A DNA stretch of 63,616 nt, filler included, from Globobulimina sp. (taxonomy: Eukaryota), in NCBI GenBank assembly GCA_003354225.1. It is 21 parts of 21 records of this genome, joined end to end, with 100 filler letters (N's around TTAATTAATTAA, not from the genome) between each part and the next. Parts side by side here need not be neighbours in the genome. Positions count along the whole stretch, not along the records: positions 27,321 to 30,254 come from PIVH01004300.1; 20 more parts are not named here. The stretch is one strand, 5' to 3'. The position numbers and the translations under genes were made by a program. A model generated the notes under the pieces. The model saw only the letters and a list, made by a program, of their open reading frames with translations. It had not been told where the DNA came from and did not search any database. Positions 22,749-33,108 of this stretch are shown piece by piece. Numbering within the stretch: position 1 is the stretch's first letter; every line of letters begins with the position of its first letter.

Positions 22749-24310
22749 AATCGTCCCATTCCATCTAATTTTTTATGATGAGGCTTAACGAGATCAAGCA
22801 TATCTTATTAAAGATAATTTGTGTTCAAATCCCAATCATCACATTTTGTTTTGTTTGTTTTGCATGCAGGTGCTTTGAGTGCAGATCTATAGAAACGGAA
22901 AATTGACAAAAATGAATCTGCTGCAGTTTAAATAGGCATAGCGAATTAATGCAAGCTGTTTGATAAGTTTGCTGAAAAAAATGAAAAAAACTTTTTGAAC
23001 AGAAAAAAATTTTCAGCATTATCGGAGAGGCCTATTTACTATGCTTAGGGACGAATGTATGTTTACATAGGACCTCGACGGCACGCTCGGAGAGCGTGGT
23101 CCATAGCGTATGAAACGCCAACTTCGTCGATATAAATTTCGCCAAAGCCAAAGGTATGGTTTTGCCCCAATTCAGATGTAATTTCCACATAGAAATCCAA
23201 ACAAATTTAATCTGATAAAATACGCAGCCATAACCATCCAAAATGAAATGCAAGAATTCACGCAAAGCAATATCAATCTCAGCCTTTTTGGTGACATAAA
23301 TGCCTTCAAACTTCAACTGCTGTTGATACAAAATCTGATCTGAAAAGGTATTGTTGTACAAAATCTGTGCTCTGTGCTAGGTAAATGTCCCCAGTCTCGC
23401 CACGCAACGCACTGTCACTGTGGACAAAGAGAGGGACCGCATGTTGAACACATACGAGGTAAAAATGGATCGAAAAGTATTTGAAAAAGAAAAGGCATCA
23501 ACATATGACACAATACCAGTGTTATGCAGCCATAATGACGTCGGCCATGGCACATATTACAATCTCCCAACATACGCTAACTATGATGAAATTATACCAA
23601 TCGCATACATGCCATGAGCTGCCAACAGAAAAGAAACAGAAACTTTGTTGCATACTGCCTTACCACAACTATCCTTCCACCAAAAGACGTCGTGTTACCG
23701 TAAGGTCACAGATACAAACAAATGAGCTGAAAGGTGCCGGACATGTACCACAAATCAAGCAAATCTAGAAACAAAGTAACTGTATACACAAGAAACTCAA
23801 CTGGCTGCAATACATTTCGCCGCTGCTGACCATGATACGGCATCTTTGTTATCATCGATAATGCGCATGACAGCGTTATTATTCTCGAGCATGGTCTCAT
23901 CGATCAGACGCTGAGAGGCTTTCGGATTAAACAACGCCTTCACGACCTTCCGATCAGCCACAGTCACGACGTAATCGTACGCATTATTACCATGCACACC
24001 ATGCGACTGCGCATAATTGTGAATATTCTACATATCCAAAGCCGTGGTCTGACGCTCCCGACATTGCTTATTAAATTTCTTCAACAACGCCAACATTTGC
24101 TTGGCTTTTTCCGGCTGCAAACCCTCGGTAAGAGTATCCATTTCTGTCTTGGTTTCGGTGTCAACATCAATGGCATCAGTTTGCTTNNNNNNNNNNNNNN
24201 NNNNNNNNNNNNNNNNNNNNNNNNNNNNNNTTAATTAATTAANNNNNNNNNNNNNNNNNNNNNNNNNNNNNNNNNNNNNNNNNNNNTCAAAACGTTTTTC
24301 TTGTGTTTAG

Positions 24311-26580
24311 TGGCACTGTGGAGCATGGCACAGGATATTAACCAATTGGACAAAGCAAATGTTCGCCTCAGTAAACAAATGATTCAATCCAAATTGCTAG
24401 AAATGGATAAGCAGTTAGCCAGCTCCATACAGACACAAGTGGTTGAAACAAGCCGTGCCTTGGAATTACTAAAACTATCTTACAAAGACATCGTAGCTAT
24501 CGGGGCAAACTTCACCCGCATCGATGACAAGTGTCTAAAGTGTAAAAATTATTTAGCGCACTTCGACCAAATCAAAAAACTCTCCCTGGCTCGAAACAAC
24601 CTCCACATCACCACCAAAATCGGCAAGCTATTCCGCGAAGTACCCAACAAAGCAAAACATCTCTTAAATTTATTGAACGACAATCCCGACAAATATCTGT
24701 ATTATGTCTATAAAAACTTGCGCAAATTGGTCCGTTTACGCGACGAAACCTTGAACAAAGGCTTGAAATATATGTCCTCCTCACTTTCAGGCGAAGAACA
24801 GATGAAAAACCATTTCAAATTGATTGACAAAGTCATATTAAACTTGGAAAAGCAGTGTCGAATGAACATCTGCGACTGTTTATTTTTAGCGGTCAAACAG
24901 CCCCAAACCTTGGTGGTAACACTAAAAATCGCCGAGCCTGAAGATCGGACCAACAAAAAAAATAAAATATTGCGGTACACCATCAATGATTGGGGCAAAT
25001 GGAGAGAGGCAGAGTTGCAAAACCAGGAAGAAGACGAGAATGAGGAAGTTATTGTGGCCAAAGGCAACGATTCGATGAAAGATAAGATCAAATCTGAGAT
25101 CCTGTGCTCTATTATGAGCTTAGTGGAACACTTACAATCTGAGAAAGAAAAGGGCATTAAAGAGTTTTTGACCGCGATTGACGAGAATATGAAGGATTTG
25201 GACTACGTGAACGACAATGTTCGCGTTACCTTCCCGCCGCATTATGAGATCGTGAAATATTATGTGGAGACTTATTATAAGTTCCTGCAGCCGCTGATTT
25301 TGGCGCAGTTGGACGCGGACGCTGTGCCTACGCAGGAGAGGCTATTCGTGGTGTCTTGGATTGCGAAGTTCAAACAGAAAATTAATATCTTAGAGAAGGA
25401 TATGTTGATCAAATATGACGAGACGAGCGGTACCGACCGCAGTGAGATGATCTCGAATCTGTCAGATCAGGAAAATGCATTATTAGCGTCATATATTGAT
25501 ACTTGTAGCGATAAGTTAAGTTCTTGGATCTCGAATATCGTGCAACAGGAAAGCAAGAAACAGGAATATTTCATGGTGGACAACATTCCGCGCACTCATT
25601 GTCCGCAGGATTTGTTCACTGCGCTGAACCATCAATTTACGATCGCCACGCAACAATTGCGGGGTAAGCCGTTCGTGGACGTCATTCTGATGATATTGAA
25701 GAGCATGGATGAATTCAAATGTTTGTTGAATCAACATATTGAGAGCAATTGGCTGCAGTTTGATGATGAATATTTCTGTGCAATGCTGAATTCGACGTAC
25801 GATGTTAGCAATAAATTGAAGGATAAATCTGATGCGATATTGGATGAGCCGCAGTTGTATTCCATCAACGATACACAGATCACTTTGATTGACGACTCGT
25901 TCGATGACAGGATTTGTATGTTTACCAATATGGGCAAGGACTGCGCCAAGTTGTTGGCTGCAAAGGTTTACACCGACTCATTGAAGGAGAATATATTGGG
26001 CATCACCTTTAGCAGTGACAAAGAGAGCGATAATAATACGATTATTCAGTCGATTATCATGACTTTGAAAGAGTATTTTGATGATTTTAAACAGTGGATC
26101 GAAGAGGCGTACTTTTTCTGGGAATTGGTGAAAGAACTTGTTATAATTATTACCAATAAATATATCGAGTCGTTGTTGCTGAACAAACCGACAAATATCG
26201 ACTGTGAGGACTTGGCGTATTATATACGGAACGATGTGAAATTGTTGCACGACTATTTCGGAGATAAGGAGGAGTTTAAAGAGATTGCAAAATTATGGAA
26301 ACAACAACACAATATTTTGACGGCGATCTATGCTGTCTTGGAATGTGAAGCTGGTTTTTTTGAGAATTTGTCAAAACCGATTAAGGATCAAAAGTTGTTG
26401 CAATATATTCAAAAATTGAGGAAGAAGAAGGATAAGAAAGATAAAATGAATGAGTATGACTATGATGAGGAGGATGTTGGCGTTGGCTCATTTGGAAAAA
26501 AGCAAATCAATAAATTGGATCAATTGAAAGACTCGAAAATGGGCAGGTGGATAAATTCCAAAGTCACACAACAAGATTAA
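24311..26580 (+). CDS. SEC6: Exocyst complex component Sec6/EXOC3 (first exon may be missing)
   Basis: ~755-aa helical protein: QLDKA..., NL-x2-T, FPPHYEIVKYYVETY, PQDLFTALNHQ, TLKEYFDDFKQW. Confidence 0.8.
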
Positions 26581-26683
26581 TCGTGTTAGATCTTGACTTG
26601 TTTATAATTCATTACATGTTTTTACGTTGTTGCATTTTCAGGGTCAACAGAAAGTGTTTTTTTCTTCGATCACAACTTTTAAC

Positions 26684-27220
26684 ATGGCATCGCCTGCAGA
26701 ATCAAATCATAATAATAGAATATGTGTGGAAAAAGGACCAGACACACAATTAAATTATTTAATAAGTCCGCAATTATTAAACCATTACAAAAATAACATT
26801 TTGCCACAATGCGATCAAACACACATTCGGAAACACGACTTTTTGCCACATTACAGAGCCAGAAGCTACCCATTATACATTGACCCAAATTTCATTAAAA
26901 TCAGCAACGATAAAAAAGACACCACAGACAATAGCACCCCAATTTCGTCGACCTCCTCCTCTCCGCTCGAAAGGGCTGACAACGAACAAAAAAGCCTCCA
27001 AACCAACAAAATCATCACAGGCTACATAGTGAATGAAAAGGCCGCTCATAAATACAGCAAAGTGACGGAAGCCTTTGAATTAATCGACGACGACCATTGC
27101 ATCGCAGGCGAAGGTACCTACGGCGTCGTATTTCGCGCATACAGCAAACCAAACGGTTTGGACGTCGCCGTGAAAGGCATCCGTTGCGATGATGGCTATA
27201 TTTACCATTTAGACGAAAAA
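26684..27220 (+). CDS. CDK-like (CMGC) protein kinase N-terminal part (3' partial)
   Basis: GEGTYGVVFRA Gly-rich loop and VAVK. Confidence 0.75.
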
Positions 27221-27320: not shown

Positions 27321-30254
27321 TGGGCACAAACGGACCAATACCTACCAATTGCGAAGAAAACCAGAAGCTGTATATGGAAATGTGGAACATTACAAATGTA
27401 TCACGGTCGGAAGAGTGGGAGAACAATACGTGGAAATATAACGGCACACAGCATGACATGGTATGGAGTCGGTATTTATTTGTAAGCACTGAAAACCCAC
27501 AGATTGGCTTGACTGGATCCAGGACGATAATCAACCCGCAAACTGGCGAATTATTAGCAATTGTTTCTGTCGATTATTCCTTAAAGTATTCATTTATTAA
27601 TTTATCTGTATTGCATGAGCAACAAAAACAGATGTTTTCATCTCCATAAACCTTTAAAATATAGACATGAAAACATTTGGTTCTGTTTCGTCTTCAGATA
27701 TCTGTCGAATATGCTCGCAAACACTGTCAACAACCCATACGATGACGGACGCTCAAACGTAAAATACGACCATTGGAAAGCCTGGATTTTTGAGACCAAA
27801 CCGGAATATGCCATGATAGCGTCGTCAGATGGCCAGGTATTGCGTAATGCGACGGAAACCGAAGGCTGTTATGGCTATTTAGTAACTGTGGAAAACCAAA
27901 AAGTGCCACATAACGCTAAGGAACATCCGGACTGGTTAATACAAGTATATTCCAAGGAAATGATCGACGTGCACGGCATAGACAGTTTGCTGATAAATGC
28001 TACATTGCCACAAAACGTGCGAGTGCCATATGGTTTGCCTACCTTAGAAGCAGGAATTGTGCAGTTTTATCCTGGCGGCGAGGCATCCATTGATTGGGTT
28101 GTATTGAAAACCATGGAAGTGTCAGACTCGTTTGTTAATGACTTGCATATTACTTTGATATGCATTTGTTGCATAATGGCATGTATCTGGGTATTACTGC
28201 GCGAATTGGATTATTCGGATAAGTTAGCAAATAAAAATAAACGTAAAAGTGCCTCAAAAAGTGCACAAATGCATGACATTGGTAATGAAGATAGCGATGA
28301 TTATAAAGCAATAATGGAGAAAATGAAACCAATCATCCAAGGTTTGTTAGGTTATAATAACTGGTATATTTTTGTTACGTATTGAATAAAATAAAAGGTG
28401 CAGCGAATGCAACATGGTACAGATTGATGACCCAAAATGAATCGCATTTGAATTCAATGGGATGTGCTTCGATTATAACCACCCAAAAAGCGAAAACATT
28501 TCTGGCGGCTCGAGCCAATAATCACATTGCGTCGGAAAACGAGAACAATGCCGTATTTCGTGAATGTGCGTGGCACGCTTGCGCTTATAATAGATATTGG
28601 AAACGGTTTCAACTGCGATATTGGGGGTTTATTGAATCGAATTATTATGACATCCCAGTTCAATTATTGTTGTTGGGCCACTTAGTTGCCACGTTTTGGG
28701 AGCCACCAACCCCAAAAGGGCTGCATGACAATGGCTTAAGTCGTAAATTAATAATCGTGCTATGTGCCTGTCAATTTATTCAATGGTTGGATTGTATATT
28801 GGTTGGATTGAAGAGATATTTCGAATTTAGTGTTTCCGAGCCATTTTTAACCTCTTTATATGAATTAAATTACGGATTCCATCATAAATATACAATTCGC
28901 GTTAAAGCCTCGCGCGATAAATATCAAAATGATAAATTGCGAGCGTTATACTTAGCATTCATGGGACCTCAATGCCGCCGGTTTATACTCCATGTTGTAT
29001 TGGTTGGAATCGATTTGATTAACTTTTTATTACAAATAACTTTATCCGTTGCTCCGTTCAGTTATTACATCCCAATATTACCGCTATTGATAATCATACG
29101 CAATCATCATGTCCTGGTATTTGGTTACGACTTTATCTCCGCCATCGTCTATGCCAAAGATGTTTTATTTTCCTATTTCTGCTTTATTTTAATATTCGCC
29201 ATCTTAACAATGTCATTATTTCGCGACACAGTCAATTATGACCAGGTCGCGGATTCCTTCCAAACCATAAACAGTGCCTTCATCACCGGATTTGTCTTCA
29301 TATCAACCTCTGAAAACTACGCAATTATGTACGACGTGTTTGAGTCGGAATATTACGATGCAACCTCGCAGCATTGGCTGGTGGTTGGAAATGTGGTGCT
29401 GATTACAATATTTTTCGCCATGATGGGCATGTTTTGTTGGATTCCAATGATTATCGACAAATTCGAGCATGCCTTCGAGCAAAGTAACATGAAACATGAC
29501 CAAAAGAATAAATTACGCAAAACCAATGCCATTATCGCTGCATTTGTGATGCTTGACTTTAATAATGATTTAGAGATAGATTCGTCGGAATTTAATTGCT
29601 TGATCACATCGTCGGTTCTAATCGATAAAAATAAGTTATTTTCGGCATTTGACACCAATGCCAATGACACGTTGGATATATACGAATTTGTGTCGTGTTT
29701 ATTGAAGCAGTCATTTCGAAGCAAAATAATATCCACAGCCTCTCATGTCCCACAGTTAAAATTCAACGCATGGTGCGAATGCAACATATTTCGAAATGAA
29801 CACTATACGATTTATATTTTTGTGTTTCTGGTGATTCCAGTAATCGGATTATCGGTAATTCGCGGATTACTCCATAGGTTTTCTGAAGTCGCCATCGATA
29901 AAAGTATTATTTTTTTTAGCTTATTAAATATGATTGAAATACATCTCCGCTGTTTTTGCTTTGGGATCCATCGCTTTTTAGATTTGTTAAAATATCCGAA
30001 TCCAAATTATATCATTGCGGCCATTCAAAAGTATCAAACAAATCATTTAAAAAAACATCGGAAAGCCCGCTTAAACACAACTTATAATTATAACAATGAT
30101 GCTGTTAACACCAACACAATCCGACTGACTTCGAGCGAACGAGACTGGGTTTCCAAACATTTAACGGCTGTTCGGCCGGCCTCCATTTTAGAAAAATCCA
30201 CGCAAACTTTAATAAATCGGGTCGAAATTATTGTTTTTTGGTTTTGTTTTTGTA
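27321..30254 (+). CDS. dCache-like domain + TM + two-pore-channel-like protein with EF-hand linker (5' and 3' partial)
   Basis: Three exons joined in frame by introns 27586..27697 and 28342..28397. Cache-like WS...LT.S..I....GELLAIVSVDYSL..LS; S1-FWEPP; pore SFQTINSAFITGFVFISTSENY; EF-hands DFNNDLEIDSSE and DTNANDTLDIYE; start of a second 6TM repeat. Confidence 0.75.
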
Positions 30255-30913: not shown

Positions 30914-31431
30914 TCACTCTATCTTCACCTATTAAACAAAAATCATCACTATACGATCAATATTCATCACCAGGAGACGATAAACATATCATTGGAAAGC
31001 TCTAATCGAGCTAGTTCATATGGTATTGGATGGGTGGAAATCCACTGATTAGTTTTGATTATATTGGTAAAAATGTATTCTAATGGACAGATAAACGGAT
31101 GTGCATACAACTGAGGTGACTATCTTTAGCGAAAATTTCCTTCTGCTAATTTAGTTATATGATTAAGAATTAAATCCTGATTCCAATCTCGTTTGAATGA
31201 GATCAATTCAATAAATATTCGCGGGATTAGATTTTTTGTATGTACTTCCATGCATTTGTCCATTAGAATACATTTTGACCAATATAATTAAATCTAATCA
31301 GCGGATTTCCACAGATTCAATACCATATTAACGAGCTCGATTAGAGCTTTCCAATGATATGCTTATCATTGAAATCCATGAATGTTAAATATTTATCTGC
31401 ATACACCTTATCGTTACTGAAGATAGAGTGA
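30914..31431. mobile_element. Non-autonomous foldback/MITE-like element (long imperfect inverted repeat)
   Basis: Outer arms TCACTCTATCTTCA (30914) and TGAAGATAGAGTGA (ends 31431). Inner arms ~30978..31110 and ~31236..31367 are largely complementary. Confidence 0.75.
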
Positions 31432-31975: not shown

Positions 31976-32098
31976 ATAATGTCCATCATGTTCTTAACCA
32001 ATCATGTTCATATTTTGAACAAAATCCACATAAAACAAAAAAACAACTACTCATCTGTTATATAAATTGTTGTGTTTTCTAACATCGTAAGCTTTACC

Positions 32099-33108
32099 AT
32101 GGCCTCGTTAATTTACGAAGGACAACTAATGAAAAAAGGCAAGTTGCATAAAGCATGGAAAAATCGATGGTGTAAATTAATTTCAGTCAATGGAGAGATA
32201 CACATAGAATATTACGACAGCAAAATGAATGCAAATTTATGCGGAACCATCGAGATATCGCAAGTCTATGCAATTGAAGTGATCCAGTCTCCCGACTATG
32301 ACCTGTCAATGTTACACCAAATACCGAATCAGTGCATAATCACTGATAAAATAAAAACTCAACAAAAATATTCATTTTTACTAACCACACCACACAGAAA
32401 ATATCATTTCGCTGCATTTGACCCTCAGAATTTCTTTAAATGGCTTTCTATTTTTCATCAGTTTGTTTATGATGGAATTATTAAACAAGGCTGGCTCCAA
32501 AAACGCGGCGAAAAGAACAAAGGCTGGAAAAAGCGCTTTTTTGTGTTAAACCAATACAAACAAATCAAATATTACCACGACGAACAGAAATTAGGTTTTG
32601 CCGGCTCCATTTCTTTAAATTATGTGACTGCCATTACAAACGGCGAAATTGTGCAGTCAAAGCAGAAAAAGTATACATTCCAACTCAACACTGACAAAAG
32701 AGTGTGGATATTATGTGCGAGTGCGTTGGAAGAACGGGTTCGTAAATTCTAACATTTACAGCATACTATAAATCCAATATATTTATAACATTAACACAGA
32801 GAAATTGGACCGAACTGATTGAAAAATGGAGAAAGGTTCAATTTGAGATTGATTATAAAGAACAAAGCTTGTTTCCGAGTGATGATGATTTAAAACAGGA
32901 AGAAACCTCCGAACAACATGTCGATTTATATCAGGTATGTTCGTCTGGCGACGATGAGGATTTTCAAGAGGTTCAACAATTTCAATGCAATTTTTGCGGC
33001 AAAATATATGCATCGCATTGGACAAAATGTCCGGGCTGTTTAAGGCGAGGAACGCATGGCATTAAACCCAAAAAACATAATGTGTTCAACTGCAGCCTTC
33101 CACCTTGA
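32099..33108 (+). CDS. Tandem PH-domain protein with C-terminal zinc ribbon
   Basis: YEGQLMKKG..KAWKNRW and KQGWLQKRG..KGWKKRFFVL. Intron ~32739..32799. Tail CNFCG...CPGC. Confidence 0.85.

Follow-up and report, generated by a model that had tools for sequence, protein, structure and literature searches.

A foraminiferal gene fragment predicted to join dCache amino-acid sensor domains and a two-repeat, CaV-like ion channel in a single chain

The stretch of DNA analyzed here (the window) comprises 63,616 nucleotides (nt) of Globobulimina sp. (GenBank assembly GCA_003354225.1), and our subject is the gene at positions 27321..30254 (+), in which a dCache-type sensor region and an ion-channel region share one reading frame. 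According to the spacer map, the window consists of 21 pieces, each of ~2.93 kb, joined by spacers of the form N44/TTAATTAATTAA/N44. The pieces are separate assembly contigs, so their adjacency in the window is biologically meaningless and neighboring pieces are uninformative on the channel gene. Positions 27321..30254 are exactly one of these contigs (PIVH01004300.1, 2.9 kb), whose two ends both cut the gene: its open reading frames (ORFs) enter the spacers at either side. A tblastn search of the window with three homologues found no further part of the gene or its family on the other 20 pieces. Once spliced, the contig holds 921 codons and is an internal gene fragment colinear with the homologue P0008 (2,754 aa), to whose residues 1591-2501 the spliced residues 8-920 align unbroken at 65% identity. 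It is predicted to encode the middle of a giant single-chain foraminiferal membrane protein of ~2,400-2,900 aa. Relative to an earlier reading made from the DNA letters alone (the sequence-only reading), one correction is that the contig corresponds to the middle third of this protein rather than to nearly the whole gene. What it does carry is the last two thirds of a second dCache domain (~235 residues), the transmembrane (TM) helix that follows it (TM4), repeat I of the channel, a pair of EF-hands, and repeat II from S1 to the start of S3.

The fragment is divided into three exons, all on the plus strand. Exon 1 (27323..27585) is partial, with its frame starting at 27323, and is followed by intron 1 (27586..27697; 112 nt, phase 2), which begins with GT at 27586 and ends with the AG at 27697. 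Exon 2 (27698..28341) completes the distal module of the sensor and continues with its membrane-proximal module, then with the TM helix and, after that, with a cytoplasmic linker of low complexity. Intron 2 (28342..28397; 56 nt, phase 1) again runs from GT at 28342 to AG at 28397, and exon 3 (28398..30254), partial and open to the contig end, encodes a pre-S1 cytoplasmic region, repeat I, the EF-hand pair, and repeat II as far as the start of S3. Joining 27323-27585, 27698-28341, and 28398-30253 yields the 921 codons with zero stops. Assembled contigs of public sequencing runs lack the introns: 27586..27697 is skipped exactly in contigs of runs X6, X7, and X3, and the X6 and X7 contigs are also without intron 2 (the joint 28338->28395, "cut +3", equals 28342..28397). 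Runs X6 and X7 represent one sample that is ~95% identical to the window, X3 is near identical to it, and the runs with spliced contigs come from two studies. A single 3,581-nt X6 contig covers all three exons and extends past both contig ends. Contigs of run X1 retain both introns, as expected of genomic DNA, and one of them spans 28187-28421. Of the listed runs with this stretch, none is recorded as RNA, and the RNA nature of X6 and X7 is a guess; the spliced contigs therefore prove the spliced form and not the expression level. End-to-end alignment of the 921-aa product was also obtained with P0009 (54%) and with P0010-P0012 (39%), four proteins of 2,399-2,883 aa. The sequence-only reading had proposed that two GT-AG introns join three ORFs into one gene rather than two, and both points are upheld by the exact removal of the introns and by the splicing of the 28341/28398 joint, with sensor and channel in one contig.

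Full-length relatives show what flanks the contig. They begin with a cytoplasmic N-terminus of ~300-900 aa, followed by TM1, a dCache_1-like domain 1, and TM2, then by a cytoplasmic linker, TM3, a dCache_1-like domain 2, and TM4, and finally by another linker, a six-TM (6TM) repeat I, the EF-hand pair, 6TM repeat II, and a long C-terminal tail, which is helical in a low-confidence model of the homologue P0001. Upstream of the channel, hydropathy and alignment identify four TM helices that are strong and conserved in all five full-length homologues, and the loops bracketed by TM1-TM2 and TM3-TM4 are ~355 and ~415 residues long. Among the 41 listed proteins of at least 1,000 aa, 18 have both a match to the second dCache domain and a match to the channel, in the same order. 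On the contig, TM4 lies at 28143..28199 (spliced aa 237-255; Kyte-Doolittle 2.67 over 19 aa). It is conserved in five of five full-length homologues, and in the alignment with bacterial dCache receptors it corresponds to their second TM helix. It had first been described as an extra helix, "S0", in front of the channel; one strong helix is present, but it closes a sensor module of bacterial type, as its C-terminal TM helix, and is not a lone S0, and the relatives carry two TM-dCache-TM modules plus ~700 further N-terminal residues. N-glycosylation sequons number 6 in the 236 ectodomain residues versus 4 in the other 666 (2.5 versus 0.6 per 100 aa), and we infer an outward or lumenal orientation for the dCache domains. 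Following TM4, the cytoplasmic linker (28200-28340) is low-complexity and rich in Lys, Asn, Ser, and Asp, and both its length and its sequence vary among close homologues.

For the spliced protein, a domain search had been suggested that would cover dCache_1, Ion_trans, and EF-hand families. With Pfam, the window's three exon translations matched neither dCache nor Ion_trans and gave only weak EF-hand matches, while profile methods did recover dCache; we attribute the Pfam blank on the Cache part to the insensitivity of single-sequence Pfam searches here. Searched against 1.84 billion representative proteins, a profile of ectodomain 2 (alignment A1) retrieved 505 at E<=1e-3. Its out-of-family matches are proteins of 350-1,400 aa that are matched at their N-termini, and in 10 of 10 sampled cases Pfam dCache_1 was above its cut-off, in company with HAMP and kinase, cyclase, GGDEF, or methyl-accepting chemotaxis protein (MCP) outputs. 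A profile-profile comparison (hhalign) of the family (22 sequences) with 57 such receptors gave a probability of 100% and an E-value of 5.7e-40 over 347 columns, from TM to TM. This bacterial set, which excludes the eukaryotic rows from Incisomonas discussed below, was picked by the family profile, so the hhalign figure is not independent of the profile search, while the dCache identity of the receptors is independent. Window residues 24-255 (232 aa) alone still gave 97.8% and E 7.5e-13 at profile positions 166-363, in an alignment that reaches from the last part of the distal module through the proximal module and the TM helix. By this alignment, 27774..28142 holds the second dCache domain's membrane-proximal PDC module.

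Structural comparisons agree with the profiles. In a PDB search with the ectodomain-2 profile, five of five matches were dCache chemoreceptor domains, each individually weak (E 0.049-0.75). The fold expected of dCache_1, with a long N-terminal helix and two PDC (alpha/beta) modules, was assessed on an AlphaFold2 (AF2) model of the P0008 ectodomain, whose proximal module is poorly modeled. Foldseek searches with this model returned dCache or tandem-PDC sensors in all 39 listed rows (best E 2.3e-5; 19 rows at E<=1e-3), and VIA-align, which is independent of Foldseek and was run against 48,161 chains, returned tandem-PDC sensors in all of its 31 best rows (Z 12.2-7.9, 148-243 residues aligned). 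As judged by these profile and fold comparisons, the N-terminal part is genuinely homologous to dCache_1, and the Cache-like region noticed in the sequence-only reading, for which a check of the PDC fold had been proposed, is thereby confirmed. The kinship of the two ectodomains is less direct: hhalign of 5-row alignments of ectodomain 1 and ectodomain 2 gave only a 40% probability (E 2.9e-4), and we base their relationship on a shared motif and on cross-matches of both hidden Markov models rather than on this comparison.

That shared motif concerns ligand binding. In the available text of Gumerov et al. 2022 (PMC8915833), the AA_motif of dCache_1 comprises, in PctA numbering, Y121, R126, and W128, which contact the ligand's carboxyl group, and Y144 and D173, which contact its amino group; the first part of the motif reads YxxxxRxWY. 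Across a family alignment of 47 sequences, ectodomain 2 has these residues in the large majority of sequences (Y121 in 25/33, R126 in 33/35, W128 in 34/35, Y144 in 34/37, and D173 in 35/37). Ectodomain 1 shows this signature at the bacterial spacing, with W128 and Y144 in 20 of 20 sequences and R126 in 17 of 20, and departs from the strict AA_motif in having mostly Glu at position 173 (Glu in 14/20, Asp in 3/20). On the contig, HMMER alignment to PctA (5ltx_A) places the Y144-equivalent Tyr codon at 27473..27475 (+) and the D173-equivalent Asp codon at 27572..27574 (+). The distal module of ectodomain 2 also holds an insert: between the equivalents of W128 and Y144, P0008 has a distance of ~80 residues (manual count), and PctA one of 16. 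The codon at 27350..27352 (+) encodes the second Cys of a conserved pair in this insert (Cys in 36/37 family sequences), the partner Cys lies upstream of the contig and is present in 34 of 35 family sequences, and the two may possibly form a disulfide. From these contact residues, we consider that each dCache domain probably binds amino acids or close relatives of them.

The channel part begins with repeat I; as for the other features of the contig, coordinates here were derived manually from the sequence and the residue numbers. Its S1 is placed approximately at 28652..28699, from the family alignment A2 and a helix (H65-80) of the low-confidence P0001 model, and S2 (28748..28804; spliced aa 420-438) and S3 (28982..29038; spliced aa 498-516) are hydrophobic segments. 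The S4-like segment at 29057..29122 has a single Arg, no Lys, and two Pro among its 22 aa and lacks periodic basic residues, which agrees with what had been read from the sequence alone; S4 of repeat I is nearly uncharged throughout the family. S5 (29162..29218) was located by hydropathy and aligns with S5 of repeat II, pore loop I (29255..29338) was located by hhalign of repeat I against repeat II and by the family alignment, with the filter-position Glu codon at 29312-29314, and S6 (29378..29434) was located by hydropathy. The EF-hand pair between the repeats occupies 29528..29701, with 12-residue loops at 29555-29590 and 29651-29686 that carry Asp, Asn, or Glu at positions 1, 3, 5, 9, and 12, the canonical liganding positions, as judged by eye. 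Pfam searches with exon 3 matched EF-hand_7 at aa 377-431 (E 3.2e-4) and EF-hand_6 at aa 412-434 (E 3.9e-5), both below the curated cut-offs, and in the homologue P0001 EF-hand_7 scored 32.6 bits, above the cut-off of 30. Repeat II follows, with S1 at 29816..29872 by hydropathy, S2 at approximately 29906..29968, and the start of S3 at 30209..30254, where the contig end cuts it; the latter two were placed by alignment A2. Its S4-S6 and pore loop II lie beyond the contig and are covered by Pfam Ion_trans in the homologues.

Pfam Ion_trans was found in all five long homologues and in P0001 (58-97 bits), in two stretches and best over repeat II. Homology between the two repeats covers S5, the pore loop, and the last part of S4 (hhalign probability 83.5%, E 8.3e-6); in this alignment, the filter Glu of loop I is matched to the one in a Gly-Glu-Gly-Trp motif of loop II. 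The homologue Pfam matches, the alignments, and this homology between the repeats together establish the order of 6TM, EF-hand pair, and 6TM that the sequence-only reading had put forward. The filter Glu is kept in both pore loops through most of the family, with exceptions. A ring of four Glu residues at the filter is the hallmark of CaV selectivity, and a dimer of two such chains would have a four-Glu ring. In a search of the PDB with the channel profile, CaV3, CaV2, and CaV1 chains matched best (E 2.6e-24 to ~1e-11), followed by NaV, NALCN, and BacNaV, and no TPC chain was among the best 60 of 161 matches. Language-model features, by comparison, had plant TPC1 as the nearest named clusters (0.94; 195-196 of 256 features). 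All five full-length homologues have only two repeats rather than the four of CaV and NaV channels. The earlier description of the protein as TPC-like thus holds for the layout only. By sequence, the pore groups with CaV, NaV, and BacNaV chains in the PDB search, and we read the whole as TPC1-like in layout and CaV-like in its pore.

A search of other protists for this architecture had been suggested, and relatives with it do recur. Among labeled members, eight representatives are from Nonionella stella and four from Bolivina argentea, both foraminifera, and the rest come from environmental assemblies; the long relatives are labeled Nonionella stella, and one 468-aa fragment is labeled Bolivina argentea. 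A distant branch with the same order of TM, dCache, TM, and channel includes a protein of Paulinella micropora, as well as a metagenome protein to which automatic annotation has given a product name that joins "Ion transport protein" and the PDC sensor domain. By this distribution of sequences, the sensor-channel design is at least Rhizaria-wide. Within the distant branch, Ion_trans is much stronger in P0065, P0071, and P0121 (Paulinella micropora), at 77-139 bits, and S4 of repeat II has more Arg in the two of these that the alignment contains, P0065 and P0071. Members of this branch may have kept voltage sensing. A different eukaryotic dCache architecture was seen in proteins labeled as from the stramenopile Incisomonas marina, where P0044, P0162, and P0163 have up to five tandem dCache-like units, each with YxxxxRxWY, together with a single C-terminal TM helix and no channel part; P0044 (1,437 aa), the form that was scanned, had no VWA match.

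The sequence-only reading knew of no direct fusion of a Cache domain to a TPC, and this stands: in a full-text literature search we found no paper describing a dCache-channel fusion, although annotation pipelines have met the design. The accessible portion of a paper on foraminiferal calcium channels (PMC10284544) does not mention the fusion, and what is available of Upadhyay et al. 2016 (PMC4822843) names only alpha2delta-type Cache proteins under "ion channels". Eukaryotic Cache domains are known, as far as the available text of PMC4822843 and PMC8915833 goes, mainly from alpha2delta, where what they do is under debate; a small number of kinases and cyclases have them too. The main text of PMC8915833 states that all eukaryotic dCache_1 proteins found in that study carry a VWA insertion. 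The sensor-channel family contradicts this statement, although Dataset S3 of the same paper might list such proteins. The architecture itself is well supported. Three outcomes had been set out beforehand as speaking against the proposal, and what we found was one gene and not separate ones, a PDC/Cache fold in the N-terminal part, and a family that does not appear as an already-described one.

Our best reading of the protein, to which we incline only slightly, is that of an amino-acid-sensing, Ca2+-modulated, and Ca2+-permeable channel. Amino acids or related small molecules would bind the outward- or lumen-facing dCache modules, and the bound ligand would shift the TM helix after the sensor, as in bacterial receptors, and its movement would be relayed to the pore domain. 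A four-repeat pore with one Glu per repeat, as in CaV, would be assembled from two chains and admit Ca2+, and the cytosolic EF-hands would feed the Ca2+ signal back onto gating. The S4 charges are largely lost, and ligand and Ca2+, not voltage, would be the main stimuli. A stronger form of this proposal is that the protein represents a new class of ionotropic chemoreceptor, in which dCache amino-acid sensors and a signaling TM helix directly gate a two-repeat, CaV-like, Ca2+-permeable pore; we put this forward tentatively and hold it to be somewhat doubtful.

Several observations weigh against this reading. On the side of the sensor, the Y121, R126, and W128 positions lie upstream of the contig and are visible in homologues only, and the C-terminal half of the motif aligns weakly with PctA on its own (domain i-Evalue 150). 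The distal-module insert could reshape the ligand pocket. A Pfam dCache_1 search (E<=10) of seven rows of alignment A1 returned no Cache family, and the AF2 model of the P0008 ectodomain is mediocre, with a mean predicted local distance difference test score (pLDDT) of 57 and ~30 in the proximal module. On the side of the channel, a PDB search for repeat I gave a single match to exon 3, to an EF-hand (E 0.85), and a 7-row profile of repeat I and the linker gave four chance-level matches and no solved channel. The channel model of P0001, built on an 8-row alignment, is unusable (mean pLDDT 42, predicted template modeling score 0.27). S4 of repeat II keeps one to three basic residues, and more in the distant subfamily, so that some voltage dependence is possible. 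Finally, the dCache domains of animal alpha2delta serve channel trafficking and modulation, not gating.

In a different explanation, the dCache domains are a built-in auxiliary subunit that plays the part of alpha2delta in folding, trafficking, surface stability, and the tuning of gating, while the channel is opened by cytosolic Ca2+ via the EF-hands and/or by residual voltage sensing, with the ligand at most modulatory. We regard this as unlikely, though it has to be taken seriously. The pore is CaV-like by sequence, the EF-hand pair lies between the repeats as in plant TPC1, and the basic residues retained in S4 of repeat II would suit it. According to the available text of PMC8915833, alpha2delta likewise has a pair of dCache_1 domains, with the same amino-acid motif in one of them. 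The TM-sensor-TM topology, in contrast, aligns TM to TM with bacterial receptors, whose post-sensor helix signals, and a VWA domain was found by Pfam in none of the 11 full-length sensor-channel proteins scanned. The conservation of the ligand contacts also argues for a bound ligand, although alpha2delta keeps those positions too. Another explanation supposes that the pore is dead and that the channel part serves as a non-conducting scaffold or transducer, akin to non-conducting voltage-sensor proteins. Repeat I is too divergent for Pfam (in the window) or for PDB searches to recognize, and S4 is degenerate, both of which would fit; the filter Glu and its surrounding motif are nevertheless kept in both loops across distant paralogues, repeat II reaches 139 bits against Ion_trans in distant members, and conservation between the repeats runs from S5 through the pore loop to S6, which makes a dead pore improbable. 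The sensor-channel order itself might be an artefact, either of a chimeric assembly or of adjacent genes misread as one, and the strong fragmentation of the assembly into 2.9-kb pieces and the presence of the stretch in no run recorded as RNA invite the suspicion. Single spliced contigs carry sensor and channel together, however, the frame is continuous over both splice joints, and Nonionella stella, Bolivina argentea, and Paulinella micropora all have proteins with the same order, as do environmental assemblies. By the open frame, the spliced contigs, and this recurrence, we judge the artefact refuted and give it next to no credence.

If the stronger form of the proposal, with direct gating of the pore by the sensors, is true, extracellular amino acids would be converted into a Ca2+ signal by one protein in the pseudopodial network of foraminifera and other Rhizaria, and the family would be the first case of Cache domains and a CaV-type pore in one chain. 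It would then suggest that the animal alpha2delta-CaV pairing reflects an old link of amino-acid sensing and Ca2+ entry, and ligand gating, if it occurs, would add to the short list of ligand-gated channel designs. Two Cache domains wired to a CaV-like pore are a natural experiment on the role of Cache for calcium channels, and a two-repeat channel with a Glu filter bears on the origin of the four-domain CaV and NaV channels. For the foraminifera, which carry many paralogues, the family is a candidate route for chemosensation and Ca2+ entry.

Other features were seen on the adjoining pieces of the window. The preceding piece holds a 781-codon open frame (24287-26580) and the start of a further frame (26597-27220), which has a protein-kinase-like glycine-rich loop and enters the spacer; both are unrelated to the sensor-channel gene. 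On the following piece, 30979-31110 and 31236-31367 form a 132-nt inverted repeat, 88% complementary and with 125 nt between its arms, that could be a hairpin-forming or transposon-end-like element, and a 228-codon open frame (32066-32752) has two stretches that look like PH domains by eye.

Among known systems, the sensor part is closest in design to the bacterial dCache_1AA receptors, such as Pseudomonas PctA, Campylobacter Tlp3, and Vibrio Mlp24/Mlp37. The order of TM, stalk helix, distal PDC, proximal PDC, and TM is shared, as are YxxxxRxWY and the later Tyr and Asp, and the predicted extracytoplasmic location is alike. The output differs, being a kinase, MCP, or cyclase module in the bacterial receptors and an ion-channel domain in the same chain here, and the HAMP domain of the bacterial proteins was not found by Pfam in the foraminiferal homologues scanned. 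Unlike those receptors, the foraminiferal proteins have tandem sensor modules, each with its own TM pair, in a eukaryotic host, and their second domain has a ~64-residue insert that bears the conserved Cys pair and separates the motif's two halves. In animals, the nearest counterpart is alpha2delta/CACHD1, which, in the available text of PMC8915833, likewise brings two dCache_1 domains, one with the amino-acid motif, to a CaV-type pore. The alpha2delta motif is split by an insertion between the WY and the later Tyr, the same place as the insert here; the insertion in alpha2delta is a VWA domain, one dCache is nested in the other, and the whole is a separate protein (PMC8915833). The foraminiferal domains are instead sequential, each between its own TM helices, and covalently joined to the pore.

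The channel part combines traits of two further systems. Plant TPC1 has the layout of 6TM, EF-hand pair, and 6TM, and the foraminiferal proteins share with it the two 6TM repeats in one chain and the EF-hand pair in the linker. Unlike in TPC channels, both pore loops here have a CaV/BacNaV-type Glu, and unlike in plant TPC1, S4 is charge-poor in both repeats and ~1,700-2,000 extra N-terminal residues with sensors precede the channel. The likeness to CaV channels, best to CaV3 (T-type), lies in the Glu at the filter position of each repeat and in the alignment of the repeat II pore loop and S6 with CaV repeats, which underlies the best of the E-values given above (2.6e-24). The four-domain CaV channels differ from the foraminiferal proteins, which have two repeats, EF-hands between these repeats, degenerate voltage sensors, and sensor domains fused to the same chain.

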